Source: Camelus ferus (taxonomy: Eukaryota). Taken from it: 64,000 nt of DNA. The DNA lies in the NCBI RefSeq assembly GCF_009834535.1, contig NC_045696.1, positions 35,404,001 to 35,468,000 on the forward strand, written 5' to 3'. Below are positions 9,647-59,014 of the stretch, piece after piece. The notes beneath the pieces are model-generated. The model was not told the DNA's origin and did not search any database. It worked only from the letters and a program-made list of their open reading frames with translations. Position numbers and translations under genes: made by a program. The stretch's first letter is position 1; every line of letters starts with the position of its first letter.

Positions 9647-9897
9647 CCTTTCCCCCTCCTCCTCTCCCTCTCCCCATCTTCCTTCTTTCCTTCCTTCTTT
9701 TTTCCTTGCTTTCTTTTTCTTTCTCTTTCTTCCTTCCTTCCTTCTTTCCTTTTGTTTTTTCTTTCTTTCTCTCTCTCTTCCTTTCCTTCTTTCTGTTCCT
9801 TTTCTTCTTTCTGTTCCTTTTCTTCTTTCTGTTCCTTTTCTTCTTCCTTCTTTCCTCTCCTTTTTCCTTTCTTTCCTTCCTTATCTTTTTCTTTTTT
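9647..9897. repeat. ~250-bp polypyrimidine low-complexity tract including 3.3 copies of an 18-bp unit CTTCTTTCTGTTCCTTTT (9786..9845)
   Basis: Read directly from the sequence. Confidence 0.95.
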
Positions 9898-10761
9898 GAT
9901 TTCTCCAAAACTAAAAAGATTGCACTAGATTTGAATATATACAAATTCATGTTGCAGTTACACCAACACCTTAAAACCTTTATCCTAATACCATTACGTT
10001 CTAAGAATTGGAATAAAAAATGTTGGTCATCAGTTTTCTTGCATTCTATCAGAAGAAGCAGTTTGCAAATGCAGCAAATGAGTATAATATGAAATCTATT
10101 AGAAGTTGACAATGTTATAGAGCAATTCAGATGGGTCTTACATTTATCCAGAGGCAGATAGACAACAGATATAATAAATAAGTAAATTGTATGATACATT
10201 AGTGTTTGATATTGAAAACTAGAAAAAAGCAATGTAGAGATCTTGTTGGTATCAGTTTCTTACATAAAGTGATGGTGATATTCAGGTTGTTTTCCTTTAG
10301 ATTGTTAGGAGGATAAAATGAGTCTTCATGGGAGGGCCCTATGAAAAGTTTTTAGTATTATGAAATTATTAATATTTAAAAATAAATAATTATAAATAAA
10401 TGTTCATAAGTAAATATCAGCTTTATATGCCAGCGCTGAGAGAAAATCAACATTGGGATTTGGGTATCTTTATATATTTTTTTCTATACACTCTTGTAAC
10501 ATAGTCAGAATCATGTTGTACAAGCAGACTTGCATCCTGTTTATTCCCGTCTCTAATTAATGTTGTAGCATAAACTTTCTTCATTACTGTTGTAAACTTG
10601 GTATATCGCTTTAGCAAATGTTTTCCAGGCTTTTTATACCAAATCCATCAGTGAAAATGTTTTACTTTTTTGGTCTCCTCAGCTCACTGATTGCTTCCAT
10701 CTCACAACCTCAAACGTCTCTATGTTTGAAATTTTTTTTTCTTTTTTAATTTCTTGTTTTA

Positions 10762-11081
10762 GAGTGGTTCTACTTTTTTGGTCTCAGGACCCCTTTATAA
10801 GACCCTTAAAATTATTGGGATTTTGTTTATGTGAGTTATGTCCATCAATATTTACTCTAATGGGAATTAAACTGGGAAATTTAAAGAAATTATTAATTAA
10901 TATACAAAATAACAGTAACTTCACTAGATGCTAACAAGAGAGATATGATGTCATCACACATCGTAGAGCTTCTGGTAAACTCTATTGAACAACAGTGAGA
11001 TAATTAAAGTGCAAAGGCAAATGCCACCTTGTTACTATGAAAATCATTTTGCCCTTCCTGGACCACACTTTGAGAACCATG
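10762..11081. mobile_element. Non-autonomous hAT-Charlie-type DNA transposon fossil
   Basis: Degenerate terminal inverted repeats AGTGGTTCTAC... and ...GGACCACACTTTGAGAACCATG; internal TTTTTGGTCTCAGGACCCCTTTA. Confidence 0.65.
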
Positions 11082-11189
11082 TTGTGTCAGAAATCTAGAG
11101 TAAAAAGGGACGTTTGAACAGGTAATACATTGATATGGTTCACTCAGGTCTGCCAGTAGGTCATCTTTTCTCCTTTCCAGAGGCCATTC

Positions 11190-11740
11190 CTATTTTTAAT
11201 CATGCATTTATATGTAGATAAGTATCGTGTAATGCTGTATAATTAAAACGAATGGAAGTTTTCAATCTTGTTTTTCTATAGCCTAGACTTTTTTTTGAAA
11301 CCTAACAATATGTTTTTTGAAACCTAACAACCTCTTTATGTGAAAGAGTCTCTTTGTAGCTTTAGTTTCTATATTTGCATGGTACTACATGGTCTGGATG
11401 CACCATAATTTATTTACGTGGTTTCTTACTGACGGGCAGTCACTTCTTCCTCTTTCATTTTTTTTTAATCCCCTAATATAAACATGGCTGTAATGAATAA
11501 CCTGGTATGAATATCATTTCACAGTTTAGTAGCTATATCTTTGTTTAATGCCTAAAATAGGAATTATTGGGTTCAACTTTGTGTGCATATTAAATTTTTA
11601 TAAATATTGTCAAACTGCCCTCAGTAGAGATTCCGCCAGTTTACTCTCTGGCTAGCAGTCCATGGAGGCATTGGTTTCTCCACCCCTTTGCCAATGCAAA
11701 CTGGTATTAAGTTTACTGATCTTTGGTAAATCCTTAATTT
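11190..11740 (-). mobile_element. Ancient L1M fragment (3' ORF2/UTR)
   Basis: GGATGCACCATAATTTATTTA, TAGGAATTATTGGGT, ATTGTCAAACTGCCCTC and GTTTCTCCACCCCTTTGCCAA occur in the same order as the L1 motifs at 55050-55330. Confidence 0.65.
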
Positions 11741-12260
11741 ACCATAATTTTTATTATTTTAAACTTGCTGTGCTTAATGTTAATGACCCTTTTTATCCAA
11801 GTGACACAATTCAGTTAAAATCACAACAAGTAGAAGATATACACAGATTCTGGGAATGAGTTGGTTGAACACGTAATTATCGTCCCTGTAGGGATGCTTG
11901 AGACTTATAATTAAAATGAGACAACAGTTACAAAGTGAGACTGTTCTACACACACTAGCCTGTGTGGTGTCCTAGGAGTCACCTTATGGAAATGGAAAAT
12001 GCAGGAGTAAATAAATGAACGTGCCATATACAGGAGCAGTTAGATCAGAAAGAATAAACCACCAAATTATTAAGGTATACATAATAATATTTTTAACTAC
12101 AAGGAATGGCCATGTTAATTTTATACAGAACCAAACACAGTGAACTGGGAGGCTATTTTTATGATCTGACTCCTGCTCATTGTGTGAAGTGATGTCTTAT
12201 TCAGTGTCGTCCTCCTTACCCAGAAACCACATGCCCAGCCTCTCCCTCTTTCTCCACTAT

Positions 12261-12660
12261 TGTGAGTTGGGTTTCCTTGGAAGCAGACTCTAAGAAGTAG
12301 GTCAGTATGCCAGACCTTTATCAAGAAGCACCTTGGGGTCATCCCTGTGGAAGGAAGAAGAGGAATCAGGAGTGGGGCTGGGATACAGACCCACCCCAGA
12401 GTGCAGAGCCTGTAACGTCTCTTAAAATGATCTGGAAATGGTCCAAGATAGCCAGGCCTTTTCATTCCTGCATTGTCTGTCTTTGGAGGCTCCACCCGGG
12501 AAGGGCATGAGCTCTGGCCTGGCTGCTCTCTACAACAGAGGCCACCTCTGAAGGGGCTGAGAGCTGCCAGCTGCCAGCACTCCCAGCAGCCAGGGCACGG
12601 AGTCCTTCAATGAAGAGGTGCCCCAATGGCAAGCTACAGTGTCAGCCTATGTATCAACAC
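12261..12660 (-). mobile_element. ERVL-type solo LTR (LTR16-like)
   Basis: GTTGGGTTTCCTTGGAAGCAGACTCTAAGA...TTTAT is the reverse complement of the LTR16-type 3' end. The GC-richer body continues across 12527 into the duplicated arm. Confidence 0.6.
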
Positions 12661-13076
12661 AGTCGCTCAACAAAGATCATTTACGCTGTTATAACTAATT
12701 CGATCTTAGGTTTACCAAGGGTATTTAATTTTATCGTGAGAACAATAAATGAGCCACATTTGTGTGCTTGTCTCCTTGGAGTCAGGCAGACTTCAGCTTG
12801 ACTCTTGCCACTTCCTCTTATTCACTGTAAGCTTCATTTTCTTCATCTCTAAGGGGGGAGGTGGAGGGTGACAATGCTTCTTTCATGGGGCTACTGTACA
12901 ACTTAAATGTTACAGTTTATGTGAAGAGTTTACCTCACTACCTGGTGCATAGTGAGCCTTCAACAATGATGACCCATATTTTTAAAGGATAATAAAAAAT
13001 GATAATAATATATAATTATTAATCAAGTTAATATAACGATTAACTTTTAATTTTTCAAGAATAATACTTTGATTTT
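12527..13076 (+). repeat. Arm 1 of a 550-bp inverted duplication (donor copy)
   Basis: Reverse complement of 24975..25522. Differences found by manual alignment: 12544 A/G, 12781 G/A, 12873 A/G, and T5 vs T3 at 13051-13055. Confidence 0.98.
12770..12975 (+). mobile_element. MIR inside duplication arm 1 (mirror copy at ~25074..25279)
   Basis: TGGAGTCAGGCAGAC...CTTCATTTTCTTCATCTCTAA...CCTGGTGCATAGTGAGC. Confidence 0.65.
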
Positions 13077-15384
13077 GGGGAGTTTGGGTCGGGGATGGGG
13101 AAGGGATAGGATGGAAAGCTTTCTCAGACAATCTCATTCATATGGCTGCTGAATCGTTAAGCCATCCCAATTACTGTTATATTGTATTACTGTAATGCCA
13201 GAGATGTTACAGTCTTCTGATAGAAGTTCAATGTAGAAGTTTTGTGAGTTCTTTCACTCTCTAACGTACGCTTCTAGGGAAAGACGGGAATGAAGCACCC
13301 TAAATATCATACATGGATACTAATTGTCGGTATCTGAGCTCCACTCCTGAAAGCTGGGAGACCCCCAGGTTGCTTGGTTTCTGACACAGGCTGTGGGTCT
13401 CTGCTGCAGCCCATGTTAGAAAAAAGCAACCTTTCTGTACAGATCAGAATCAATTGAGAGGATGAAGCCTACAAAGCTTCATCCCAAGATTGATGGACTG
13501 GGGAAGGGAAAAAGCAAAACCCTTTCTAAAATGAAGGATCCCTATTTGAGGTCAACACGAAAAGTCTGGTGGGTGTATCCAGGCGAACTAGGGTCACATT
13601 AAAGAATGGGATCTTTTAGCATCTGATTGTGCCTAGTTCGGAATAGAGAAGTCAGCAGTTAAGAGGACCAAACCAGGATAGAAAATGGTATCAAATGGTA
13701 TTAAGGGAATGGCAAAAATTCAGATTGTTCTGCTAATAAAGTTGGGTTTTTCAGACAGAAGTAAAATGTCAGACAGAAAGGAGCCAAGAGAAGGAATTGA
13801 TCTAGAGATGCACAGACCTGCCAGACAGGCTCAACAAAATCCAGCCGAAAAAAAAAAAAAAAAAAAAAAAAGCCGAGGAACTTTGTGTAGTGGATGTCAT
13901 TGCTTGCATCAACTAGGAAATCTTTGCTGGGGGACGTTTTCCAAAAGTCATTCCACACTTGACATGTCCTAATTCTTGCCATTCACAGCTTCTCCTGCCC
14001 CTTGGGTCTGCTTCCACCCTTGAGGGTGAAACCCGTTAGTTTTTCCTGACTTCCTTTAACCTATCAAATTTTTCAACACAAAATTCTAGATACCTTAATA
14101 ACCCTATGTTCTCATGGAAAAAAAAAAAGTAGGCAAAGGAAGTGATCTCTAGACTGTTCAATGAAAGCATGTGCTTTTCATCCCATTTACTCTTCTTAGA
14201 GCATCAACTTAGTGCTGGGAGACTGTGCTGGCATGCTAATGCCTCAACACCTGGCAGAACAGCCATGAAGTATCTCAGGAACTAGATGAACATACTTAGT
14301 AGAAGGAATAAACTTATGGTAATAATTTAAATGAAGTTTTATTTACACAATTGCACAGAGACCATTGGTAGCACTACTCAAATGAAAAGTTTTTGAGCCC
14401 AACATTTCTGATTTGGGGTTCTCATATACTTATACTTGAGAAGCTTATATTTTAGAAACTTGGCTTTTAAAGGTTGCAGGAGTTCCTTATAGTCTGTCAC
14501 TTCCAGTCAGTGAGGGATTAGGAGCATAAAGCAGATTAATAAAGGGGACATTCTGTAAGTGGTTCTGAGTCAACATTCTGAACAGTCCCACTGGGATCCA
14601 TGGGAAAGGCCAGGCCAGTGTTCTTTCTAGCTGCAAGAAGAAAGTTGGAGGAGAAAACAAAGAACCTTCATTTAAGAATAAGACGGTTTGCCAATGCCTT
14701 AGCTAATCCTCAAAAAACTGATCTTGAAAATTAAAATAAAACATCCTTGCATACAATCCACCCAACATGTATTATCAACATATAAAAACTTCTCCAAGGA
14801 AATAGTGCTTTTTATAGGAATGCTTTTTTTTTTTTTAAAAATAAATGCAGTATAATGCAAACACATTTCAAATTGGTCAAATTCTTTTCATCCCAAATGC
14901 TGCCACCAAGGTGCCGACCACCGTCTCTTAACTGGTCTCGTGCCTGTAATAAAAATGTCACTGCTTTTCCTGCTGCCTTTCCCCTTAAAATCTCCACATT
15001 GCAGTCCAAGTGATCTATTTAAAACACACATATTACTCCTATGCTTAATTTTTAATATTGTTACTTTAGGAAAAAACAAATCGACTTTTTCCTCATGGTC
15101 CCTTTTACCCTTAAGTACACATCTTCTGAGGGAAGAGCAAACATCAGCTTTTGTACAACAAACAAAATCTAGACTTCTTTCCAAGGCTGCTTGGGCTTCA
15201 GATGGTCCGATTCCTGCTGAACTTCTCACAAACGTCATCCTTGCCAGATTATGCTGCAGTCACACTGGCCGATTTTCAGTTTCTCAGAAGCACTCACTGC
15301 TTTCATTAAAGCTCTCTCTCTTGTGTTTTCACTTTCCCAGCACACGTTCCCATCTCTTCAAATGTGGTTCACTCTCTGGTTTTA

Positions 15385-15530
15385 GATGTTATCATCATCT
15401 TTGTTTTACAGATGAGAAAACTGAAACCAAAGGGATTAAGTAACTTGCCCAAACGCTAATTAAAGCCAATCAGTGGCAGAATTAAGACCCCAGTGATCTA
15501 AACTCCAGCTCCTGGGTTCTTCATCGCCTT
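15385..15530 (-). mobile_element. MIR within L2-like sequence (~15150..15750)
   Basis: TTTTACAGATGAGAAAACTGAAACCAAAGGGATTAAGTAACTTGCCCAA core. Confidence 0.8.
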
Positions 15531-18500
15531 AATGCCTCCGTCTTACCACCTTGCTGGTCTAATTCTTAGCTTAAATGTCAGGCATTGCCTGATCCACTGT
15601 CTAAGTAGATCAGATAAGATAATTTATCACAACTTGTAATTATTTATTATAGTAACATGTTCATTTTAATTGTTCACTATATTGTGAGATTTCTGAGAAC
15701 AAGAACAAAATATACCCAGTATATGGACTTTCTTTTTTGACATAAGTGCTCATAACATTTTTGCTTGAAGTAGCTGTGGCCCACTGTGGGGCCAGGCAGG
15801 AGTGGCTACGTCTTGAAATGACACAAAGTCATATAAAGTATAAAAACTGCTGTTTTCTGGTTTTCATTCTGGTACCATCGTAATGGCCATATTACAATAT
15901 TGTGAAAAGGACTGAAAACATCAAACAAAAACAATGAAAACAATGGAATTCTTTGAAATATTGAAGACCAATCAGTTCTCTTCAATCTTTAGCTTTTTTC
16001 CTTTTCTTCCCTAAATTCATCTGCTTCCTCCAGTTGGCTCTCTTTTTGCTTCTGCTTCTTGGCACCATCCAGCTGTAATTCAGTTTCCAAAGCAGTGTTT
16101 GAGCAGAATCTTCAGACTCAAAATATTTTGAAATGAGATGGAGGGAGGACCAGATAGAACTCATACGCTGAGTGCATGCATGGACCAGGTGGTACTGAAA
16201 GTATTCCTTGAGCAGACTGATTCTCTGAGAGCATTAGTTAACAAAAAGCACAAAACATGCCCAGACACCCAGCAAGTATGATGTATTATTAAAAAGGGGT
16301 GGAGTGGAGGCATTTATCTGACAGGTGAGAGCCAGGAAAAACATTTCTGTAAATTGGTCCGTTTCTCCTCAAAATGTGTCTGAGATGAAATGGAGCATCC
16401 TTTGTTTTATGCAAAGAAAATAATTCAGGAGACTGACAGTTTAGTGATGTATGTCTTTGTGGCTAAGACTTAAAGGCCTGAAAAAAGAAGGTTAAAATTT
16501 AAGTAAATTGAAGGACAGATAAATTTAAAATACCACATTTATTTTCTCTTTTGTTAATATTTCCTCTTCTTCAATGAGAAGAAAAAATATAACTACAAGA
16601 TAGAGCATGGGTAGGGCAAAGGAGAGAAATGAAGGGAGATAATAAAAGAAGTTTGTCTATAACATTCCTAAAGGGGAGAAATAACATTATAGGGAATAAA
16701 TAGAAATTAAAGTGCACTGCCTTCAGTTGGGTGTTATACTTTACTGCATATCTGGAAATATTTGTAGTTATCGGGAATCTTGACATCAATGAGAAAAGAC
16801 ATAGTATCTCAGTTTTTGTTCTAAATGAAGGTCAAAGTCAGAGTGTACTGTGGACATTCTAATGAACAGCAGAATGTCAAATGTTTCCTCTTTCTTAAGA
16901 AAGTATAGTGATTGTTTGAGGACTAACTTGACACAAGAGAAATATTTGCACATTGCTAAAGCTCTTCTTTTGCAACAGGATAGAATTCCCAAAGCTAGGT
17001 CATTACTGTATTTTGACTTCCTAAGCCCTCATCTTTATACCATTGGTGAACAGAGTTGAGCAGTGCAAAAGCTGGGAGCAATATTTTCTCCACTAATTTC
17101 CGTCTTTTGTTTAACATATATATTCTTTACAGAATTCTGATGACATTTTATTTGAAGTGTTCAAAGTACCAGAAAGTCACTAGGAAGAAGGTTTGAGGTT
17201 GGCACTGGATAAAAAGACAACCTTGAACTAATTTTAAAGTTTGCAATTAGTAGAGATCACAGTGTGGCAAGTAAAAGTTTTAATGATAGACTGGCCCAGG
17301 CCTTGAGGTAAATTATGCATAATTATTCATAACTGCTATTTTTGGCTTGCCTGATTTGTCCTAGACCTCTGGCTGAGGAAACAATTTGAAATAATTAGAG
17401 TGCTGGTGCATTGACAATGATGAATGGATTGAATACTGCTTGTGCCAAACATGGGTCTTGATAGGAAGCAGATAACTTTGGCAACTGTGGCATTTTGTTA
17501 TTGGATCTCTGAGAGTAGGAAGCTTGTGTTGTTTTTTTTGGTGTGATTTTCATAGGTTGTTTTTAAGTCATTCTCTAAAGACTTCGGTCAGTAAGGAGAC
17601 TACAATTAAAAACAAACGAAAAACAACATTTTAAAAAATTATTGCTATAAACTTTCCACATTTTTTATTTATTTATAACTAAGTTTTGCATGCTTATTGT
17701 TGAGAGTTGGAACTATGGTAAATAAAAACTAAATATAATTTCACATTAAGAAACTTTCCTTAAATTTTAATTTTATGGAAAGATTTTGTATTATTTAGTA
17801 TATTATATCATAGCTGTAATTAATACTGTAGTTAAAAAAAACTGTACTGATAGTGAATTAAATGCAATGCTCTTTAAAATAGAGAAATTTTAAATAATTA
17901 ATACATAAGAATACTATGTATGTTTCTAGAACTTTATTTTAGAAAGTAAGAAAAAAATAGATATTTGCTACATGCTAAATTCCTATTGCTAGATAGAGAA
18001 ACCTCGTCTTTATATATAATGATAAATGATTGTTAATAGATAAATGTGTTGAAATAGAAAATGTTGAGTGGTTCTGGGGCACCATCAGAAGATAAAACTA
18101 GCAAAAAATTTAAAAAAAGGAGGCTTGGAGACCTATCTTTTTAATTCATTGTTCATAAATTGTATAAAGCTCCTTTCTTAATTAAGCAAATAGTCAGAAA
18201 CACAATATATTCACATTTTTCAGTAGAATAAACACCAACAATTGTCTCTGTCTGGAGACAACAATTGCCTCTTGGCTGGAGATTTGGACAAACAGCCAGA
18301 CAATCTTTGTGTTAATGAAAAAGCTTCAGCCTATTTAGGTCACCTGAATGCAAAATTAGATTTCTTTTTTCTAAAACCATAAAGTAATTTAAAAGTATAA
18401 AAAGACTGAATTTCCAGACAACCTTTGAAATCTACGCTAGTTGAATTTTATCACTCTGCTAATTGTGTATGGTATTTTCTCTATTTTAAAATAGTTTCTT

Positions 18501-21500
18501 AAGATACTCAAACTTGGAGTGAAAATAGCATAACTTTTTTCTTAAGGATACCATATATACATTTTCAGGTAGCAAATATGTATCTTTATTTTATACACAT
18601 TACTTGCATCTTTGCTATGCTTCTGAAATGCTAATACAATTGTATTATTCTTTATCACTTTAACCATGATGAATTATTTAAATGATCTTGCCTTTTATAT
18701 ACAGGATAAACTACAATCTTAAATAATCTCCACATAAAATAATCTACTCATTGGCTAATTATTACATATAATAAAACAATTCTTTTATGTAACTCTTAAC
18801 CCCAAGTGAAGAGGGAAAATGCCCCATGTGACCATACAGCTTTTTTCCTGTGTGTTATCAGGTATTATGTATTTCAGAATGCTGTGTCCCTGAACTTGAA
18901 AATACTGTTTTTGCAGGGTCACTCTGCCATAAAAAAGGAGGTTCTCTTCTCAAGTTCGTTCTTTTGTCATTTTATTCTTTGGTTTACAATCCAAATGTAA
19001 CACAGCTTCAGTTTTACTGAGATGTAAATGCCACTTCATAATTTTATCTTTGGTATCTGATTCACATTTTCTGATAGAAATTGTAGCACTGAGTCGGCTT
19101 TTCCTAAAGACTTTATTAGTCAGGGTATACCATAAAGTTACTGGTAGTGATAGAATAAGAGTCAAATGAGTGTTTTTGGATATCAGTAAACTTTAATATT
19201 GAGATTGGCTTCATAAAAGGAAGATTTAATTACAGAAGTAGAAATACTAAAGTTTAAACACAGGGATACTTGACTTGGTCTATTTTCCTCATAAGTAGAT
19301 TACCACATTGGTTTACCAACCTTCAAGGACACCTTCCTGCAACCTGATAAAATGGAGCAGCAGTGCTCTGGCGGTGGAGGTATCCCCTGGTCCTTTGAAT
19401 ACACACACTTTGGGGGTAAAATGTGGCCAAGGAGCCAAGGGCATAAGAACTGCCGTCTTTTAGAGTTTTCTTCTGTGTTCCCCATGACGTCTCTCTCTAC
19501 TAAAGGTAGAGCAACAGTGATAGACCATGTGATCTTGAGCCCAAATAGAAATATTGAATCTTTAATCTGAATTACAATAAAAGACATCTTGCAAAATAAT
19601 GTGTGAATGCTCATTGCTGTTGTTATTTTTGTTAATGTTATCTGGAACGAAGTTCAGCAGTTCACTTGCCTCCTAGGTCATTAAAAATAAAAGATGTTTA
19701 CAGTGTGAAAAGCAAATGTTTACTTTTTATAACCATGTTTTAAGAATTACATTCTGATACTTTTGCTCAGCTGCATAGGGAAGCAAAACCTTTAACAGAT
19801 TTGACCCTACAAAAAGGGGTTCTGCTTAACATCACCACATGGACATGCATTTGCAGACTGGTACAAATTAGCTTCTGCATTACATGTAGATTTTGATGCT
19901 TCAAATTTATGAGTTGTTTGAAAAACTATATAAAGAAGGAAGCATTTTACCCCCTAAACTAAAGTGAAGTGACAGGATTTTAAAAAGCTCATCATATTTA
20001 CCAAATGGCTTTTCCCATTGGAAGCCTGGCAGATTCAATTTCATGGCAACAGCCCAATATTGAAATCTATGAGAACAGTAATTTTTCAAATTGATTGACT
20101 ATCACTAATCAGCACTCAAGAAAGTGTTGCTGTCTTTTTTTAAGGCAGAAGCAATGAATTCTGACACACAGTGTAGCAGGTGGTATATATAAAGGTTCTT
20201 TTCTTATGATAACATAATTTGATATTTAATTTTGAGGCTCAGGTTGAATGAATATGGTGGGGCGTAATAGTACAGATTCCATCTCACATTTGTTTTCTTC
20301 TAAGAAAATGGCAAATGATCAAATAATGGGCAAGAAAATGTCTTTTTAAATTTATTTCATTCACTAATTACTTCATTGCTTTAAGCTACAACCTCAGGCA
20401 GGGCCTGTTTCCACAGTGCCATTTTTTCTTTGATAAGATTTTTCACAGTCCCCGCACTCCCCTACCCCTCCCTGCCCGGCAGATGTCTGTTATTTGGTTA
20501 GATGTTCGAGGCTCTACCTGGAGGACTATGGAAATCCTCCTGAAGAAGGGAGTGAAGGAAGGGTAACACAACCTCAAAACCAAAAGTTCATGGCTGCATT
20601 TAAAATAATTTGAATCAAAAAGAAATAAAATAATAATAGTAATAATAATTTGAAGCAAGAACCACCTTCTGATCACAGTAGTCATGGTTAAATGCAAGGG
20701 TCTTAGCGATGTGCATATCACTGATAACATTTCCCTCGGGGCCCTGTGTGAGCAGTGACTATAGTCTTTGCATAGACAAGAAGCCCTCTGTTTGGGTGGA
20801 AGGCATTTTAAAGTAGTTCTCTGTGAGATAGATTGCAATTCCTCCCATTCTTTTTTTTGTTTTTTTCCTCCTCCCAAACCAACTGCCCCTTCATTTCTCC
20901 TCCCCCACCATCCCCTTTAAGTTTGAAGCCATCAATTCATGTATTTAAATGTCCTTGGAAACTGAAAGTAATCTAGAAGGTTATTAGCATATTGTTATAC
21001 ATGTTAATGGCCTGACACTGAGGATGGGCTTTTTCTTTTATGGGTGTTGTCGTGAACATTACCAGTTTAAATGGGGAAAATCTTCCCCATTCAGAGTGTC
21101 ACCCTGGCCCTTCATTCACTTGTCAGGAGCCCATTGTGTGCCCCAAACCTTGTCGGAGGCTTGTAGATGTTTAGTGGCAGCAGCTCGCCTTTGAGAGCTG
21201 GGAAGAGGGCTGGCTGGGGATGGGGCGAGACTGGTCTAGGCGGCCAGGTGGTGGCCAACTGGCCAGTAACTGACAGACAATTTAACCTAACGAGGCTGTA
21301 CAGTCAGGCCCGCTTTACAAAAGGCCCACATGTGTCCTCAGCAAGCTTCATTAACTCTTTTGGCTCGGGCTGTACTCCTCTGACATATTAATTAGTTGCA
21401 ATGCTTTCTCTTCCTCTAGCTTAACCTTTCCATTGGTCACTCGAGTGCTTCCACTGGAAGCTGTTAGAATAATATGTATGCAAAATTACCAGGAAAATTA

Positions 21501-22456
21501 ACTCTAAGAGGAAGAAAATATTCCCTATCACTGGACTGATTTTATATGAAAAAAAAAGCAAAAGAAAAATGAGTGACCATTAATATTTTACTCAGAAAGG
21601 TGATATATTCTATATTGTTAATAAAAATAGGACATCGATTACTATGCAGTTGTGTGCTGATGGGTATAAAATTGTCTTGGTTTTTTTCTGTCTTTGTGAC
21701 AAAAAACATAAAATAATATTTTGAGGCATTTTAGACTGTATTTGTAACCAGAGTAACATGACCTTGGAATTATAAATTGATTTGAGGGTTTGAGTAATTT
21801 TCACAAGTTAAAAAAGTCTTAATAAAGAAAATCTATTATAAATGTTCTTAAAATTATAAAAAGTACAGAGCATTCAGAATCTGTACAATGTCTCATGTGT
21901 ATATAAACATACATATATGTATATATATTCGCTGACAAAAAAGTGGTGAGTTTTTTTTTGTGCTTAGTCTCGGCTGCTTTATATTATATAAGCAAGTACT
22001 GTATCATGCAAACTATAACTATGTAGATGCATCAAGTATTGAATTTAATGATAGATAAGCCTAATTTGTATTTTTTCTTTGTTTTGCTCATAGAACATTT
22101 CTTGGCAGGGATGGTCTCTAGATATGAATTAATTTAGAAAAGTCCAAAGGCCAAAAATGCATTTTATGTATATGTTCTTGGTAGGCAATAAATCTTCAAT
22201 GATTTAATACTCTTAATGTCTCACAGCATGTTAGTCACTTGTCAAGTCCATTGAGAAAGTAAATTCAGTCTTGTTTCATCATTTTTTATCTTGTGATTTT
22301 TTTCCAACTTCAGCAAATCTTTGTATTGTAATTAGTTCAGTATTCTATGGAAAAAAATAAAACAACAACAACTACTACACAGGAATAAGGACAATGTGTT
22401 ATTTGTGTACTTCTTGTTAAATACGAGTTTTCATTAGCTGTGTAAAATGAGTAATT

Positions 22457-22622
22457 TTTTTTTACTTAGGTTTTTTTTTGCATTTTTTGTTTGTTTTTGT
22501 TTGGGGGAGGTAATTAGGTTTATTTATTTTTTATTTTTTTTTTTAATTGAGAAACTGGGGATTGAACGCAGGACCTTGTGCATGCTAAGCAGGCATTCTA
22601 CTACTGAGCTGTACCGTCCCCC
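22457..22622 (-). mobile_element. tRNA-derived SINE of the camelid Vic-1 type
   Basis: Minus strand reads GGGGGACGGTACAGCTCAGTAGTAGAATGCCTGCTTAGCATGCACAAGGTCCTGCGTTCAATCCCCAGT (A and B boxes, tRNA-Ala-like head), then an A-rich linker, AAATAAACCTAATTACCTCCCCC and an A-rich tail. Confidence 0.85.
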
Positions 22623-24573
22623 ACCAAAGTCTGTAACTTTTGCCATCCTTTTCTTAAGTTGTATTGCTAGAGAGGGAGAGATGCTTGTGTTCAAAACCTG
22701 GTCCTGAGCCCTGCCCCTACTCACTTTTTGGTGGACTGAATTATAATATTCCCAGTGGTAGTTAGTTATTATGACTTTTTTTCAGGCTGACTCTAGAATA
22801 AGCAAAGTCTCAGCAATTCTTGATGTCTAAACCTGGACTGGTTGTTCTAAGCTATAAAAAAAAAATTAAATGTCACAGTTTAAGGGAAAAAAAAATGATA
22901 CCCCTTAAACATCGGCTGATGTTTCCTACACAGTGTTCAATAAAACACAGAGTGACCTCAAAAAGGGGATGGTTAGTTCTGGCAGACGGGTGACATCCTG
23001 CTCCCAGGTGTCTTCACGTGTGTGTTTTGAGGTGTACGTTTTGGAGGAGAAGAGTTGATATTGAAAGTAGAAGCAAGAAAAAAATTCTCCAGCTATTACA
23101 GAGAACAAACTCAAGAAGAGTATTTATAAGAAAAATGAGTAACAGACGAGTTGTTGTAATAATTTTTATTTCAATTTGTGTTTATATTTGATAAATAGTC
23201 AAACATTATGTATAGAATCTGCTTGTGAAAACTGTGAATTCAACATTCAGGAGGCCTAGGGTTTTTGTGGCACTAGTAGTCATCTTCTCCTTGGCTTTAG
23301 GTGTCCTCATAAATTTACATAGCAATCGAATAAAGATGATAATCCCTGTTTTTAGAAGTATGTGCATCTTCTTCATAATCAGGAAGAACTCTGAATAGAA
23401 CTGATCAAGGCAGAGATGTAGGTGTGGCCATTATGAGTACTTCATTATTGTTTTAATAGGGAAATGAGATTATTTGCAGCTACATGCAGTGAACTTATTA
23501 TCTTTGGGTAGATTGGGTCTTGTTTGGGTTTGTTGTTTAATCCATTTATAAACAGTGTGTTCACATATAATATGCATATCACTTGTGAAAGTAAAATGAT
23601 AGAACGATTGATTGGAGAGAGTATATTTGCACTATGTTCTAGCAAGTCCATCATTTCTCTGAGAATCCCTGTTTTGACTGTAAATTAGAATTTGTTATTA
23701 CTCTTATTTTTCAAGTTATAAGCTAAAGCCAAGAGGCTTATAAACACCTATCTTGATGAAAAGTTATTCTTTTTTCTTAAGCATCAGATAAAACTATAAA
23801 ACAAATATCAGAGTAAAATATCTAGAGAGGTGATAATAGTTTATAAAAGCAGAAAATATGGAAAGAACTTACACTAGTCAATTTAATCAAATGCCAATGA
23901 TTATAAGATTTTCTGGTCCTGCATTTTTAAAAAATCAAATCAAGTTTTGTAAATCTGGTAATGCCAGCATTTGCAAAGAAGAAAAAAAAGTGACAGCATT
24001 TTGTGATACTGGTTTTGTTGTCTCAGTTTAATTAGAGGCATTTAATAATAACATTCTCTGGTCCTGCATAATTCTTTTTCGGTTAAACCAAGCTTTGAAA
24101 ATCTGATGACAATAGGTTTTGTAAGGGGAAAAAAAAAGTGATAGTATTTTTAAAATTTGACCCTGAACCTTTCACCTGAAGAAATAAACATGAGTTGGTT
24201 GTATTTGGCAGTAGAATGTTGTCTTTGAAAATATGCCCCTTTTTATTTGATGTGATCCAAAGCAACGCTTAAACAAATTGAGTCACCAGTGCCAGCACTT
24301 GATAATTTAAACTGTTGTAAAAATGATTGGTGTTTACAAGTACAATTTGCTCCAGGAAAAATTTGGCATTCTTTTAAGTTGGAAAAGTGTCAATATTTTA
24401 TGATATATTTTATACCAGCCGTACTCATATTGCAAGATCTGTTCCAAGTACAAGCTCTAGACAACTTTAAACTATTCATTTAAAGTTGTGATTTATAGGA
24501 ACAGTATAGTTACTGGTCATTTATTAAAGCACATCATTTTTAGAAACTAAAACAAAGGAATGGGCATATTATT

Positions 24574-24586
24574 TATATATATATAA

Positions 24587-24652
<66 letters not shown>
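24574..24652. repeat. Compound microsatellite (TA)n(TG)5(TA)28
   Basis: Read directly; pure TA run at 24597..24652. Confidence 0.97.
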
Positions 24653-24656
<4 letters not shown>

Positions 24657-24974
24657 CATATATCTTAGTATGTGGAGGCTTATTTTGAACCATGTTGAAA
24701 TACTAAATTTTTAAGTTCTTTGCCGAAAATAGTAGAGTTGTTGTCTTCTAATGGACTTTAAAAATCACTGTTTCTAAATAGTAGTTTGCAAAATTATTCA
24801 ATTTTAAATACTTTATTCCTCCAATTTGTTAAAATATTTTCCTTAAAGGAAAGTTGCTTTCTAAAAATTTCCTTTTGGTTTCTGAATCAAGCCTATGGTT
24901 TTATTATGGTTCTTTTATATTCTGGCACTTCCAGTGTAAAAAGGAAAAGACAGGAGGAAGAGAAAAAAAAATCA

Positions 24975-25522
24975 AAAATCAAAGTATTATTCTTGAAATT
25001 AAAAGTTAATCGTTATATTAACTTGATTAATAATTATATATTATTATCATTTTTTATTATCCTTTAAAAATATGGGTCATCATTGTTGAAGGCTCACTAT
25101 GCACCAGGTAGTGAGGTAAACTCTTCACATAAACTGTAACATTTAAGTTGTACAGTAGCCCCATGAAAGAAGCATCGTCACCCTCCACCTCCCCCCTTAG
25201 AGATGAAGAAAATGAAGCTTACAGTGAATAAGAGGAAGTGGCAAGAGTCAAGCTGAAGTCTGCCTGATTCCAAGGAGACAAGCACACAAATGTGGCTCAT
25301 TTATTGTTCTCACGATAAAATTAAATACCCTTGGTAAACCTAAGATCGAATTAGTTATAACAGCGTAAATGATCTTTGTTGAGCGACTGTGTTGATACAT
25401 AGGCTGACACTGTAGCTTGCCATTGGGGCACCTCTTCATTGAAGGACTCCGTGCCCTGGCTGCTGGGAGTGCTGGCAGCTGGCAGCTCTCAGCCCCTTCA
25501 GAGGCGGCCTCTGTTGTAGAGA
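24975..25522 (-). repeat. Arm 2 of the inverted duplication (548 bp)
   Basis: Same alignment. ORFs 12610..12801(+) and 25248..25439(-) give the same 63-aa translation except for one V/I difference. Confidence 0.98.
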
Positions 25523-25799
25523 TTATTCTGTTCTCCAGGACTTAATTTCTCCTTTGAATTAGGTTTAATCTATTTTATTTTTTTCAGTTTTTTGTTTGTT
25601 CGTTTGTTTGTTTTGGCCATGATTGACTGCAATTGATGCTAACTTGAGGGCAACTTTCTTCTTATTTTATATGCAAGTTTCATACTAGTTCTGAGAAATA
25701 CTTTCAATTTTCTAATACAGAAATGAGATCTTCTTCTAGCTTATTCCATATCTGGGTTTGTGATGCAAATCTCAATACATTACAATTTGAGGATATCAG

Positions 25800-26010
25800 G
25801 AGAGCAGCACAGTAGAAAGATTATGGGTTTCCAACTTAAAAAATTTGACTTGGAGATGTATTTTTTCCTACTGACTCTTTATTCTTATCCTAGTCATTCA
25901 GTCTTTCTAACTCCCAGTAAATTCACTTGTAGAATGAGAGTAATAACACATCTCACAGAGTTGTATGTGACAAATATGCGTGAAATATGTGAAAAGCACT
26001 TTACACGTAT
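25800..26010 (+). mobile_element. MIR
   Basis: TGTAGAATGAGAGTAATAACACATCTCACAGAGTTGT...TATGTGAAAAGCACTTT. Confidence 0.6.
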
Positions 26011-26405
26011 TAGCTGCCTTAAATATGACTTAGAACAAGGAGTGGTATAAATATACTTAACTATAGGTATATAAATACATGCATAATAAACTATTTTCAC
26101 TGTTGGAATTTGTCTAAGTTACTTGGAATTTATATTGAATGTTACTATAGGAAAATGAATTGAGCGGAATTAAATTCAAAAATAACTTTCAAAATATGTA
26201 ATTTTGGTTTTGTATAATTACAATAAAGACATACAAATTTTGTTTGTTAGTGTTTTAGGCCCCTGTGCAAACAAATACACACAAAACGCAGATACAAGAC
26301 ATGTGTCACACATACACACGTACACACACAAGATTTTTCTAGTTGATGCATAACTAATTTGCAAACCCAAAATCACTTGCCTACCTGTAGCATAGCATAA
26401 AGGGC

Positions 26406-26406
<1 letters not shown>

Positions 26407-26440
<34 letters not shown>
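26407..26440. repeat. (TG)17 microsatellite
   Basis: Read directly. Confidence 0.97.
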
Positions 26441-26441
<1 letters not shown>

Positions 26442-29400
26442 TCTACTTCTTCTCATAATCATTTGGAATTTTCCTAAATACTGTGAGGGTAGTTTTTCTT
26501 CTTATATCTGATTTTGTATCTTATAAGAGACATTTTTACCTTTAAGCATGCCCAGAATACTAGCCAGCTACCTGCCAGCAATTCTCTGCAGCAGGTCTGC
26601 AACAGACACTTGTCTGGCTGTTGTGCATGCCTTGGTGTGCTCTGACAACTGAGTGTTGAAATCTCTGGGGGGCTTCCAGGAGTGACTGCAAGTCTGATGC
26701 CTTGGATTGCCTGTCCACATTTGGAACTCTAACAATAAAAAAAGATTTATCTCTCATGCATCTGCCTTCTCTTTTCTGATTTGATGTTCTCTCTCCCATT
26801 GGTAAGATTTCAGTCAACAACTTCAAAGGCTGAGGCGGGCTGAAAGCACACTGCAGATGGGGAAAGTTACCTTTCTCCCTTTCTTCTTTGGATTTCATTT
26901 TTGTCAACACTTTTTGAAACTGCCGATTAGGTTTAAGACTTTGTTACAAAAGAGTTTTGAAAAGCCACTCAAAGTGGCAGAAAATGTTAAAAAAAAAAAA
27001 AAAGCTAATATTCAAGTGTTAGTTCAAATTAGTGACTGCAAATTAAATGCACTGTTTTATCACAGCACCCTGTACTTCTCCCTCTGGGTAATTTAAACTG
27101 TGGTATTGTTGACAACACTCTATGTGTTTTATGTTTATATTCTCGTTTTCTGCTGCCTAGTTTATTTTGTCTTTTTCCACTTCTCTTTCCCTTATTTTAT
27201 TTCTCTCCCATTTAGATAGTGTGCTGTTCAAGGAAGTGTTACTGATTGATTAATTTACTATATCCAGAATTTTCCAAAGAAACTTGTTATACTTTGCTGT
27301 ACAAAGCAAAAATATAGTGTCTGAAGATAATTAAAACAATGCTCCCTGAAAGGAGCGAAAGTACTGGAGGAAAATACCACAAGGTGGACTATATTGATAT
27401 CTACTTAATCAAGTATATTATATTTCTATTTTGGATTTGACCCAAAATATTGAAACCCATATTTTACCAATATTGAAACTTCATCATATATATGGGGAGT
27501 TTTAAACTATTGAGAACAATCATTTATTAAACCACCTTAAGGTGTAGCTCCTCTAGCATTATGATCCATAAATTACTTTTAATTAGATGTGAACAATATT
27601 TTGAGGGCTTATAATCAAACAGCACATGTAGCCTTTTTAATATGTGAACATTTCAATTTATTTTTAAGTTGTTTATTACAACTCATAAATATGTTTGATT
27701 TTTATCTGGATGTTCCTTTTTCCATATGTAGAAAGATAGGACTAATACATAAAAGAATGCTATTGAATAACTTATAATTTCACATATATTATAGTTGATT
27801 GAGGAATTAGAAATGGAAATCAGTCTGTGGAGTGTTATGTCATTGCAATGATGCACCAACTGTTTTGAAAGATCCTTGTTCTGAACTTTCAGACCTTGGG
27901 GAATAATGGTCCCTATGAATCTGTTATTTATTCCTGTAGATGGTACATTATCTATGAAGTTTGTGGCTTAGAATAATCCTTACTTTAGTTATTTTAGATG
28001 TGTTGAAAAATATATTTAAAGGATTTTTGTGTTGTTGCTATTATTATTTCTGAATAATATAATTTAATATTTAAAACATTAATGATTTCAAGACTGTTAC
28101 TTCTTAAAGGATCTCCAGTTTTAAAAGCATTTAAAATACCTTAACTTCTATTTGCTGAGATTAATAAGAAATGTATATTTTACATTCATGGATACTAAAG
28201 AAAAATAAAAGGTATATTTTATATCAATTGTTGCTTATCAGTAACATCTAAATCTTGAGACTGAAACTTTTTTCTGTATGTTTAAGGTCATAATTTTATA
28301 ACTTTTGACCATGGTATATCAGACCATAATCAGATAATCAATAAATATTTATGATATTAAAAACTATAGGTGTATTATTCACGTGTGATGCCTTTCTAAA
28401 AGCTAGGGGTACAAATTATATCACTTATATTTTATTATGTAATGAATTTGCATTCTCCTTTTTTTAACTTGAAGAAAATAATTTCTTTATCCTCTAATGG
28501 ACCATTTTAGAGATGGTACTTTGGTTTCTTCCAGTGTTAAATTATGTAATGTGCATTTTCATATTTTTCCAAAGATCCAAACAAAAATTGTAAAATGATA
28601 TTGGAAAGGGATGTGATTTGGGCTTCTAAATAATAAGTCTCCAGTGTTTTTCCTAGCATAATACTGATCTCTGACCTCTATTTCTCTGATTCTTCCCTCA
28701 ATTATCACGTTGCAGTGAGGTGTAGACAGAGTTATCAGGGGAGGGGCTTTAAATAGGTCTAATTAAAGAAAAAGGAGGGGACCTTTAAGAATGAGTTACC
28801 GCCTGACTTTATTTCTGAAATAATAGAGCACAGACACCACCACCTAAGAAGGAATTCATATGATCCATACTGAGTCTCTTTGTGATCTTGGGTCCAGGCT
28901 AGTCCAAGGGGAATGTGAAAGTATAAAGTTTGACTCTTCTCTCATCTTTTTTGTTTGGATTGAGGTCACTGATGGGGCAGAGCAGGGAACTGTGTGGTTA
29001 ACTGTAGTGAAGACAGCCTTTGAGCAATGCTAAGTGTTATGTTCAAATGCTTCCAATATTTTTAAACTTGAAGTACAAAAAAAAATACAGATCTTCAAAA
29101 AACATGGACAATGAAATCCTTGTCTAGCTCCTTTTTTCACTTTTTCCTATTAACACATAGAGTCACAAACCCGTGTCACCAAGTCAAACACACTCACACT
29201 TGTAGATACATGTTCCCAGTAGGGGTTCATTTGTGCTTAGTGCTGCGGTTTGGTGAAAAAACCCTCTCATGTGTGTAGTTGTTTTCATTTTGGAGCTTGT
29301 CACAGCATGAAATCAGTGTCTCACTGAGAGCAGTTTTTTTTTTTTTTTTTAAATACCTTGAGACTTAGAGGCTAAGTAATTTGAATGTCTGAATATGCAA

Positions 29401-39349: not shown

Positions 39350-39587
39350 GTTATCTCTAACTTGGAGTTCGAGATTTGCAGATAACTAGCTACTATATAT
39401 AAAATAGAGAAACAATGTTTATACTGTTTAGCACAGGGAGCAATATTCAGTATCTTGTAGTAATGTGTGATGAAAAAGAATATGAAAATGAATATATGTA
39501 TGTATATGTATGACTGAAACATTATGCTATATACCAGAAATTGACACAACATTGTAAATTGACTATACTTGAATGAAAAAAAGAAAG
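39350..39587 (+). mobile_element. 5'-truncated L1 (3' UTR only), sense orientation
   Basis: Matches the reverse complement of the 3' UTR at 54505-54720. A-rich tail. 9-bp TSD AAAATTTTG at 39341-39349 and 39588-39596, with a canonical TT/AAAA endonuclease site. Confidence 0.88.
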
Positions 39588-39615
39588 AAAATTTTGCATA
39601 AATGTTATTACATGA

Positions 39616-51880: not shown

Positions 51881-52145
51881 TTTTTTATTGAAGAATAGTC
51901 ACAGTGTGTCAGTTTCTGATGTACAGCATATGTTTCAATCATACATATACATACATATATTCATTTTCATATTCTTTTCCATTATAAGTTACTACAAGAT
52001 ATTGAATATAGTTCTCTGTGCCATGTAGTAGAAACTTCTTTATCTATTTTATGTGTAATAGTATCTGCAAATCTTGAACTCCCAATTTATCCCTTTCCAC
52101 TTCCTTTCCCAGCTGGTAACCATAAGTTTGTTTTCTGTGTCTGTG
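51881..52145 (-). mobile_element. 5'-truncated L1 (3' UTR only)
   Basis: Homologous to 54505-54770. TSD ATTG(G/A)TTATCATTTTCT at 51864-51880 and 52146-52162. Confidence 0.9.
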
Positions 52146-54804
52146 ATTGATTATCATTTTCTTTTTATTATCACTGCAAAATTGAAATCGTATAAGGTAA
52201 ATCATAAAGTTACTTTTCCTCACTTTAATATTTCTTTAATTGAGTTAGCCTATGCACTAAATGTAATGCAAGTTCTCTCTCTCAAAGAAAATATAAACAT
52301 TTTTCTCCTTACTCCTTATTAACAAGTATCTAAAAATGTATCCAAGAGAGTATAAATGAGTATAAATCCATAATTACTATAACCGAGGTTTATCAAAATG
52401 AGAGTTATTAGGTTAAATGCTAATTAATTGTTAAAAAAAATGTTTTCCCTCAAAATACATCTTTGACTCAGTGTCAAGGAGCTGTGCTATCTAGAAAAGA
52501 TAAATCAAGAGTCTCCTTCACATCGTGCTCTGTGCTTTGTTGAAGGAGGGGCTCACTGTGCTTATGCTCCAGGGAGTAGATTTCAGAATGACCCTTCTCG
52601 GGAAAGGAAGTCTGGTTAGGTGGTTTTCTTATGGTTGTAATAATCTGGAAAAAGAGAAAAACAAGAAACTCAGTTCTGGCCTCTGTGGTCGAATAATAAA
52701 AGCTCCTAGTAAGAATCTGGGAACCAAGCTAAACATCAGAATTACTGATTTTGGAGAATTTGAGCTTTAGAAAGAATTCCAGTTCTTACTAGTTCTGGGT
52801 CCCCTTCTACTGAAGACAATGTTACTACTAGACAACTCCTGCAGAGTATTATTTTTTTTAAGAATTAGAAAAATGAAGAGATAGATGCTTTACACTCCCC
52901 AATTCTATTTGTCACCCATTCTATGTCACCCATTTTCTTTTTCCATGTTGGCCTTGGGACAATTACTATGACAATATATTATCTCTAATAATTTATGAAC
53001 ATGCAGTTTAGTTCTTGGAGTAGGAAGATAGGATAAACATGAGCATTCTTTAAATTTATAAAGTATAAACATTATAGCAGCAGTTTTAATTAATGATTTC
53101 TGTTGCTGTTGTTGCAAAAACACTCATTTGGGGATTTTATTTCCACTGTCCAGTCCTCAGCAAATGCTGGAGTTTGAGACTTGTTTTTTGTAAGTGGCCT
53201 GAGATGGCAAGCCACATCACTTACAGGCAATTTGGTCTTCATTACAAATTAATGAAGTGATAATTGCTCTCTGCAACCTTTTACGCACAAAGCATGCTGG
53301 TGCTGTTTGCATCATCTTCCTGCAATTTGTACCTCTGCATCCGAGACTTGTGTTAGCTTGCCAAATTAGCACTGAGAGGGAAAATGTTAAACTACAGTGA
53401 GATCTCCGTAATTAAAATCCTATTTTTACATCAAATTATGAAAATCTTTACCTAGTCTTATTTCTGTTTGATGTCTAGTAAAATGCTGTCCAAGGCAGGG
53501 GAACTTTGCAACTGATTCATTAGTCCAACCAAGTACAAACTCTTATCTATTGTGAAAGGAAATCTTGACCTAAAATTTTTTAAGTCAAATGGTTAATTTT
53601 TAAATTAATTTTCCTCGTTAGCTCTGTACTTTATAATGCTGTTGTAGAACCAATATTATGATAATAGAGAAGATTCCACGTAATATTGACTTTTTAACAT
53701 CACAATTTTTGAGCTCTCGGTTTACTCTTTTTAATTCTTCTGATATTAATGTTATACATTAGTTTTGCTTTGAATGTGACTTCATTGTTTATAGGCACCT
53801 TAGTGTAAAATCCTCAGAAATAAGACTCATATATACTTTTCTTTTTTTAAAGCTCTCTGTATAATACACTCATAGAGTGGATGTTTGAAAACAGTATATT
53901 GGTGATTATTAAAAGTACAGTGTGAATACTGTCTTTTCTTATATTAATGTATAGATATATTTTGTGTATTAGGTCTACAGTTTTCTAAAATAACCCAGAT
54001 TTGATCCTTTGTTGGACCTTGGATATGACGATGAGGTCAAGAGAATTTTGCCTCGAGAAAATGAGAATTTCTCATATATTCTAGACCCTGAATGATCATA
54101 GTTATTAAAATAAGTAGTGCTTTTTACTTGTTTATTTTTGTTTTGCTTTCAGGCTGGTAGGAAAACTAAGAATAAAAAGTTTTAGAACTGTATTTCTCAC
54201 ACTGGTGGGGGTCCATAAATTGGTTTTGATAATTCAAACACCCTGATATAAATAATTATTTTTTTCTTTAATGAGGTTCAAAGGCCAAATAAAACACTAT
54301 ATTTCTTTACTTTTGGTTACTATCAATTAAATAAAGTGGCACATCTCATTTTGTGGCCAGAAGTTGTGGATTGGAATTCTTACATGTTGCTAATGAATAC
54401 AAATAGAAAAAAGTGTGAATACACTTTAAATGCTAATGCTTTAGTTAGAAAGTATTTAAAACTTGTCTATCCTTCTGAAAATAAGTAACTTTTTTTGTAT
54501 TCTTTATTTATTGAAGTATAGTCAGTTTACAATGTTGTGCCAATTTCCAGTGTACAGCATAATGTTTTAGTCATACATATATATACATATATTCATTTTC
54601 TTATTCTTTTTCATTATAGGTTACTACAAGAAATCGAACATACTTCCCTGTGCTATACATTGTAAACTTGTTGTTTATCTATTTTATGTATAGTAGTTAG
54701 TATCTGCAAATTTCGAACTCATGATTTATCCCTTCCCACCCCCTTTGTTTGTTCTCTATTTCTGTTTCTGTTTTGTAAATCAGTTCATTTGTGTCTTTTT
54801 TTTT

Positions 54805-54950
54805 TAGATTCCACATATAAGCAATATTATGTTGTATATTTCTTTCTCTTTCTAGCTTACTTCACTTAGTATGACAATCTTCAGTTCCATCCATGATGCT
54901 GCAAATGGCATTATTTCATTCTTTTTTTATGACTGAGTAATATTCCATTT

Positions 54951-54999
<49 letters not shown>

Positions 55000-58705: not shown

Positions 58706-59014
58706 TTTGTTAATTGTTTTGGATTTATTTTTGTAGGTCTTTTTTCTTTCTTCTTTTTGTTCTCTTATGGTTTGATGACTATAGAGTTACATTTGGATTC
58801 CACTTTCTTTTTTATGTATGTATGTGTTATAGATTTTTAGTTTGCAGTTACCATGAGGTTTTGGTATAGAAGTGTGTATGTGTATATATATACACACATG
58901 ATTGTTTTAAATTGCTGATCTCTTAATTTCAAATTCATTTTAGATACCCTGCATTTGTACCCTCCTCCCCTCATGATTACTTTTGTTGTTTCCAGTTGTA
59001 GCCTTTTCTTTTTT

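Follow-up and report, generated by a model that had tools for sequence, protein, structure and literature searches.

A young inverted duplication in intron 2 of EPHA3 in Camelus ferus, probably a templated copy with an unturned spacer

We have examined a 64-kb stretch of the Camelus ferus genome, hereafter the window (64,000 bp; C1:35404001-35468000 on contig NC_045696.1, from an assembly of 2.09 Gb in 2043 contigs), which belongs to the ephrin receptor gene EPHA3 and contains no N bases. Intron 2 of this gene holds a 550-bp segment (arm 1) and, 11.9 kb downstream, a second copy of that segment in the opposite orientation (arm 2). At a probability of roughly 70%, we consider arm 2 to be a real, young inverted copy that was inserted at its present position by template switching or break repair, with the DNA between the arms (the spacer) not inverted. 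Plain coordinates are positions in the window. The four junctions of the structure are termed J1 (12526/12527), J2 (13076/13077), J3 (24974/24975) and J4 (25522/25523), and its parts are as follows.

12527..13076, + strand: arm 1, 550 bp, the source copy at its ancestral place (repeat search, alignment, genome search and repeat continuity)
13077..24974, + strand: spacer, 11,898 bp of unique non-coding intron DNA, in native orientation by strand asymmetry
24975..25522, - strand: arm 2, the inverted copy, 548 bp, which holds only the 12527-12643 part of an old repeat and cuts it at its outer end
12266..12643, no strand assigned: the old interspersed repeat, which runs unbroken across J1 (genome matches and pairwise blastn)
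24968..24981, + strand: the spacer/arm 2 junction (J3), with the 7-mer AAAATCA twice in tandem, one on each side
25517..25528, + strand: the outer junction of arm 2 (J4), a new junction inside the old repeat

A repeat search of 11000-27000 returned one long inverted pair, 12527-13053 with 24996-25522, which is 99% complementary over 527 nt without a gap, the ungapped arms being separated by 11,942 nt. Gapped alignment lengthens the pair to 12527-13076 (550 nt) and 24975-25522 (548 nt). When 12427-13176 was aligned with the reverse complement of 24875-25622, near-identity was confined to 12527-13076 and was lost abruptly at both ends. In a global alignment with arm 2 taken as its reverse complement, the arms differ by three substitutions, all of them transitions (12544, A in arm 1 and G in arm 2; 12781, G and A; 12873, A and G), and by 2 bp of a T-run (13051-13052) that are missing from arm 2. 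Arm identity is 99.4% over 548 bp. The final 100 bp of arm 1 have a G+C content of 12%. An earlier reading of the letters of this stretch (the original prediction) had given the same arm coordinates and the same count of three transitions and one 2-bp T-run indel, and both the repeat search and the alignments agree with it. The pair is the sole long, high-identity pair in the whole window, and within 264 kb of contiguous sequence no other pair reaches both 150 bp and 90% identity.

Two of the three substitutions, 12544 and 12873, are CpA in arm 1 and CpG in arm 2, as had been predicted and as is seen in the global alignment; CpG dinucleotides number 6 in arm 1 and 8 in arm 2. The original prediction took this pattern of CpG decay as an argument against a copy artefact. 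Three of four other copies of the old repeat carry G at 12544, so it was arm 1 and not arm 2 that changed there, which fits CpG decay. The argument is nevertheless weaker than was claimed, since alleles or errors give like differences: CpG transitions are the commonest allelic differences and are also a common long-read error.

The 550-bp unit is not a dispersed repeat family. Arm 1 gave five matches in a search of the whole genome, namely the two full-length arms plus three short matches (40-69 bp, 80-90% identity) inside its old-repeat part; the 2.09-Gb genome thus holds two full-length copies of the unit, the arms themselves. Many dispersed copies, which the original prediction had named as the finding that would speak against it, were looked for in this way genome-wide and only the two arms were found at full length. 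A whole-genome search of 12877-13676 likewise returned only the arms themselves, and one of 24375-25174 returned only the arms and a palindromic microsatellite at 24595-24658. No other genome copy was found of the 600 bp on each side of the inner junctions or the 600 bp to the right of arm 2, apart from a 33-bp low-complexity match and the palindromic microsatellite. The alignment and genome search together therefore bear out the claim of a real, young, two-copy structure.

Marks of transposition were also looked for. No direct repeat abuts the arms as a target-site duplication would, the longest words shared by the 30-bp flanks being 4, 5 and 8 bp with none touching a junction; no poly(A) tail is present at the ends of either arm; and none of the 16 open reading frames (ORFs) of at least 82 amino acids in 12121-26047 has a Pfam match. 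A DNA transposon with long terminal inverted repeats (Polinton-like or other) was rejected on the basis of the absence of an abutting direct repeat, of further copies and of transposition genes, and also because arm 1 belongs to an older repeat that continues outside the arm. An L1-mediated retrocopy was rejected for want of a 3' poly(A) and a flanking target-site duplication. The view that the unit is not a transposon thus held. The 8-bp word GGGAAGGG occurs at 12498-12505 and at 13098-13105, in each case exactly 21 bp beyond the end of arm 1. We read this pair as chance, because the words are not at the junctions and the old repeat is unbroken through the left one.

The old repeat gives the structure its polarity. 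It is 64-74% identical to copies elsewhere over the longer matches, with two 47-bp pieces at 85-87%. Continuity at J1 was assessed by pairwise blastn against nine loci holding relatives of this repeat. Four loci (L011, L015, L013 and L004; 65-71% identity) cross J1; among the remaining five, two match the left side only, two match the arm interior only and one does not match. On the arm 2 side, the same six loci match within 25406-25533 and stop at 25493-25533. The matches of L015 and L013 end at 25522 and that of L004 at 25519, L011 extends by 11 poorly matched bases beyond J4, and the matches of L003 and L005 end inside arm 2. Because four loci run across J1 and the same repeat is cut at J4, arm 1 is ancestral in place and J4 is new, which is what the original prediction had proposed for 25522/25523. 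The sequence at J4 reads GTTGTAGAGA on the left and TTATTCTG on the right; this junction is blunt, with microhomology of at most 1 base. No repeat was found across J2 or J3 by genome searches or by sensitive blastn against ~250 kb of the region and the nine repeat loci. Repeat continuity thus cannot choose between an inversion, in which J3 would be old, and an insertion, in which J2 would be old, and which inner junction is ancestral and which is new was deduced indirectly.

The orientation of the spacer was addressed through strand asymmetry. In mammalian introns T and G are in excess over A and C on the coding strand, and TA skew is positive along genes (PMC2927911). Skews of this kind take far longer to change than a 99.4% identical repeat has existed, so that a recently flipped segment should mirror its surroundings. 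The controls were 21 non-overlapping 11,898-bp segments from 264 kb (the window and the next 200 kb of the gene), with the structure itself left out. The quantity (G+T-A-C)/N was positive in all 21 controls (0.001-0.145, mean 0.028) and was +0.027 in the spacer; no control was at or below -0.027. A Markov strand classifier was then trained on the + strand in a leave-one-out manner, each segment being scored against its own reverse complement. At orders 0-3, this classifier called 20, 21, 21 and 20 of the 21 controls correctly, with control medians of 12.0-15.1. The spacer scored +14.2 to +16.8 at these orders, and its mirror value was reached by 0/21 controls. At order 4, 18/21 controls were called correctly and the spacer scored +18.6.

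When the spacer was divided into six blocks of 1,983 bp, five were positive, compared with 74% of 126 control blocks. Resampling six of the 126 control blocks gave P = 2e-4 for a native segment at -16.9 or lower, and the lowest of 116 contiguous six-block control sums was -0.7. Training on the distal 200 kb, with homopolymers and dinucleotide repeats removed, gave +13.9 for the spacer, or +11.9 when a short interspersed element (SINE)-like repeat and a microsatellite, both in the spacer, were removed too; under distal-200-kb training, five flank segments scored +7.1 to +59.1. TA and GC skews in 1-kb bins of the window alone were too noisy to settle the orientation. We conclude from strand asymmetry and the 21 controls that the spacer at 13077-24974 is in native orientation, with odds of at least 20 to 1. 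The original prediction had left two origins standing, an inversion scar and a templated insertion. With the spacer asymmetry native and 0/21 controls at the mirror value, templated insertion is favoured and an inversion scar is less likely. As a separate observation, 54000-61000 shows a strong excess of T over A on the + strand (TA skew of 0.19-0.43 per kb), which raises the skew of one control. This excess probably marks a long A-rich element antisense to the gene; that it is L1-like is a guess.

At J3, the sequence reads GAGAAAAAAAAATCA on the left and AAAATCAAAG on the right, with AAAATCA on each side. Tandem 7-mers of this sort occur at 154 of 263,986 positions, or at 96 when microsatellite-like units are left aside (3.6-5.8e-4 per position). 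A tandem 7-mer at precisely the inner junction is therefore improbable by chance, and it is easier to explain if repair made the junction than if a random cut fell in old sequence. The stutter reading of J3 that is described below was devised after seeing the data and is given little weight.

The copied state of arm 2 is observed; from it we infer synthesis off a nearby DNA template and the route by which this took place. In order to produce the structure, a DNA end or nascent strand at 24974/25523 would have taken a stretch 11.9 kb off on the same chromosome as its template. Copying would have proceeded from 13076 back to 12527, and the copied strand would then have rejoined at its point of departure, leaving an inverted extra copy between 24974 and 25523 and the spacer unturned. 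Two routes are possible: template switching during replication (fork-stalling or microhomology-mediated break-induced), or a double-strand break at 24974/25523, in which the end may have copied arm 1 before it was end-joined. A single event cannot tell template switching from break repair with end joining. The stutter at J3 may reflect priming on an A-run, copying of a few bases, release and re-priming, which would yield the tandem AAAATCA.

The three differences in 548 aligned bases amount to a divergence of 0.55%. Mammalian neutral rates are 1-2.2e-9 per site per year, and at these rates the arms would be 1.2-2.7 million years (My) old, or 0.4-0.9 My by the single non-CpG change alone. Roughly, the event took place ~1 million years ago, with a range of about 0.3-8 My when the Poisson range for three events is combined with these rates. 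Gene conversion between the arms would make this estimate a lower bound.

Several observations weigh against a templated copy beside an unturned spacer. Spacer orientation was read from composition and from nothing else. The classifier was weak at order 5, at which 16/21 controls were called correctly, the spacer scored +6.0 and 3/21 controls were at or below -6.0. The signal within the spacer is uneven (-2.6, +5.9 and +14.0 for its thirds; +0.7 and +15.3 for its halves), and one of its six 2-kb blocks is negative. The clean microhomology that is expected of a simple template switch was found at neither new junction. In addition, G+C is 33% at the spacer end (28% over 300 bp) and 49% at the spacer start, so that in base composition the AT-rich end of arm 1 passes more evenly into the spacer end than into the spacer start, as an inversion predicts, although this is weak evidence. 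Finally, an identical structure would result from an inversion that recombination between the arms has since reversed.

It is unlikely that the structure is an artefact of assembly, with one real copy, an arm 2 that derives from a chimeric read, gap-filling or a misjoined haplotype, and arm differences that are alleles or consensus errors. A homopolymer indel and CpG transitions do also arise from errors and alleles, and short-read polishing cannot separate the two arms. The window is nonetheless without a gap, both arm 2 junctions lie in unique sequence, and no contig of another layout is present among the 2043 contigs; the one simple artefact of this layout, a contig placed backward whose overlap was retained, would give a reversed spacer, in conflict with the strand asymmetry. 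Words sampled from 17000-26999 were present at 0.86-0.90 in 20/23 public runs and absent from three, which shows that the region is present and does not bear on the junctions; the 20 runs carry three organism labels (A, 14 runs; B, 4; C, 2) and come from 7 studies. Scans of metagenome contigs gave no match to the 24-mer right of 25523 or to the 28-mer left of 24974. A 101-amino-acid open frame across 24974/24975, searched in its full-length form only, had no match in the protein database (26 candidates, none scored). An inversion by staggered breaks is harder still to credit. It would require a staggered break round the 550-bp unit and a far break, between which unit and spacer turned while a filled-in overhang doubled the unit. 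The layout of unit, spacer and inverted unit is precisely the product of this model, the junctions are blunt as in end joining, and the G+C content at the end of arm 1 passes evenly into that of the reversed spacer end; inverted duplications of this sort are found at 17/29 Drosophila inversions (PMC1885836). The spacer asymmetry is native, however, with 0/21 controls at the mirror value and a resampling P of ~2e-4. J3 would also have to be old, with a nick ending arm 1 exactly between tandem 7-mers that occur at 3.6-5.8e-4 per position, and among human variants inverted duplications outnumber simple inversions, 54% vs 20% (PMC4617611).

We regard as very improbable an inversion followed by a flip back, or a flipping that is ongoing, in which recombination between the arms restored the native orientation and orientation may vary among animals. 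The end state is the one seen, and inverted arms of 548 bp at 99.4% identity suffice for non-allelic homologous recombination. Two events are needed, however, where one is enough, and no sign of a second orientation appears in the data used here. Intermediate forms were absent from comparable human sites in the work of Sudmant et al. 2015 (PMC4617611). The least probable of these explanations is an RNA-templated patch, in which a break 11.9 kb downstream took up a reverse transcript of EPHA3 intron RNA. RNA-templated insertions at breaks are described, and the source lies within a transcribed intron. Against this stand the absence of poly(A), of a target-site duplication and of a T-rich nick site suitably placed, together with the closeness of source and target in cis, which points to a DNA template. 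In humans, inverted duplications are not typically linked to retrotransposition (PMC4617611).

The structure was compared with known systems. Among 229 characterised human inversion calls, 54% were of the 'Inverted Dup' class and 20% were simple inversions; nearly all of the inverted duplications were smaller than 1 kb and within 5 kbp of the other copy, and replication errors were suggested as their possible cause, retrotransposition not being typical (Sudmant et al. 2015, PMC4617611). The EPHA3 structure is most likely an ordinary young member of this class. As in the human cases, a segment of less than 1 kb is present twice in cis, the second copy is reversed and near its source, and the segment between the copies is not inverted, as read in EPHA3 from strand asymmetry. 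Marks of retrotransposition are absent, as is typical of the human class (PMC4617611), and one EPHA3 copy sits in its ancestral context while the other has a new junction. The EPHA3 copy differs in that it is seen in one reference assembly of another mammal. It is also an outlier in spacing, and in spacing alone, with 11,898 bp between the copies compared with the 5 kbp of the human cases (PMC4617611); this too counts against our preferred reading of a templated copy.

Staggered-break inversions (Ranz et al. 2007, PMC1885836) share with EPHA3 a segment that is flanked on both sides by single, oppositely oriented copies of non-repetitive DNA, with blunt junctions. In that work, however, the segment is inverted relative to an outgroup and is of chromosome scale (PMC1885836), whereas the EPHA3 spacer is 12 kb long and, by strand asymmetry, not inverted. 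The EPHA3 structure also resembles the products of fork stalling and template switching (FoSTeS) and microhomology-mediated break-induced replication (MMBIR) in its inverted extra copy, its new junctions and its short stutter. In these processes, the growing strand switches to a nearby stretch, which it copies in the opposite direction before it returns; this creates an inverted extra copy, new junctions and short stutters. Unlike those products, the EPHA3 junctions lack clean microhomology, and the copy is small, neutral and intronic and not a large disease-associated gain.

The placement of the structure in EPHA3 is based on exon matches. The Pfam domain Ephrin_lbd matches an exon at 62670-63125 of the window on the + strand. 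Against PDB chain 4l0p_A ('Ephrin type-A receptor 3'), 149/150 aligned residues in the translation of this exon are identical, with other Eph receptors ~80 bits behind; EPHA3 entries from several mammals match the translation at 100%. When residues 1-51 of a full-length relative (P0016) were searched for in the window, there was no match, the best E-value being 0.99. In the genome search, residues 1-29 matched C1:35369532-35369618 (+) at 90% and residues 30-51 matched C1:35387216-35387281 (+) at 100%. The EPHA3 transmembrane exon is at C1:35641094. Intron 2 is ~79 kb long and fills nearly the whole window; the inverted duplication lies within it, on the + strand of the gene, 29.2 kb past exon 2 and 37.1 kb ahead of exon 3. 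The Pfam, PDB and mammalian EPHA3 matches, together with exons 1 and 2 in the genome, thus confirm the assignment to an EPHA3 intron that had been made from the letters. The exons, and two repeats in the spacer, are as follows.

C1:35369532-35369618, + strand: EPHA3 exon 1, 34.4 kb left of the window start
C1:35387216-35387281, + strand: EPHA3 exon 2, 16.7 kb left of the window start
Window 62673-63335, + strand: EPHA3 exon 3 at the right-hand window end (ligand-binding domain)
22450-22641, no strand assigned: SINE-like high-copy repeat in the spacer (genome search)
24584-24667, no strand assigned: self-complementary (TG)n(TA)n microsatellite (arms of 42 nt, 86%), 300 bp to the left of arm 2

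A first look at the genome gave 3289 candidates for the SINE-like repeat, of which 39 were scored, mostly at 78-89% identity. AT-rich palindromic tracts are fragile, and the microsatellite at 24584-24667 may bear on why a break arose nearby. A second Eph ligand-binding exon is found on the same strand 2.87 Mb downstream, at C1:38334928-38335383 (+), with a transmembrane exon at C1:38705450; it is part of a neighbouring Eph receptor gene. Elsewhere in the window, older repeat copies at 80-86% identity pair 39394-39591 with 54493-54690 and 51930-52040 with 54562-54672, in inverted and direct orientation; the copies at 39394-39591, 54493-54690 and 51930-52040 presumably belong to one interspersed family. 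A long CT-rich low-complexity tract, polypyrimidine on the + strand, occupies 9662-9905.

The two arms, if transcribed together, are predicted to pair as RNA. The predicted arm-arm duplex has 546 pairs and -1045 kcal/mol, compared with ~-142 kcal/mol for each arm folded alone, and its predicted defects are two A-C mismatches, one G-U pair and one 2-nt bulge. No match to EPHA3 exons 1-2 and no ORF matching Pfam was found between the arms. As the arms lie in one intron and neither was found between them, every EPHA3 pre-mRNA would carry a near-perfect 546-bp duplex. The EPHA3 arms are ~2x the length of an Alu. Inverted Alu pairs in transcripts form long double-stranded RNA that is edited by ADAR1, and long double-stranded RNAs of endogenous origin serve as ADAR1 substrates and may act as MDA5 ligands (PMC12695637). 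The EPHA3 arms resemble such pairs in being two inverted copies in one transcript that are able to pair (PMC12695637); they differ in that they are not transposon copies, are far more alike (99.4%) and stand 11.9 kb apart. By these predictions, the EPHA3 duplex would be longer and cleaner than the inverted Alu pairs that are known as ADAR and MDA5 substrates. The arms are, judged by sequence, also long and alike enough that they could recombine, which would flip the spacer. We tentatively hypothesize, with more doubt than confidence, that the predicted duplex is heavily A-to-I edited or diced where EPHA3 is expressed and that the arms flip the 11.9-kb spacer back and forth as a small inversion polymorphism of this lineage.

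Taken alone, the structure is of little weight, as it is one neutral-looking copy in a long intron and belongs to the class that is commonest among human 'inversion-like' variants. It is, however, a dated (~1 My) example of the inverted duplication class outside primates, in which both junctions are readable and one carries a 7-base stutter. Short-read callers would tend to call the EPHA3 structure an inversion. The event has placed a long, near-perfect inverted repeat in the primary transcript of a neural receptor gene.

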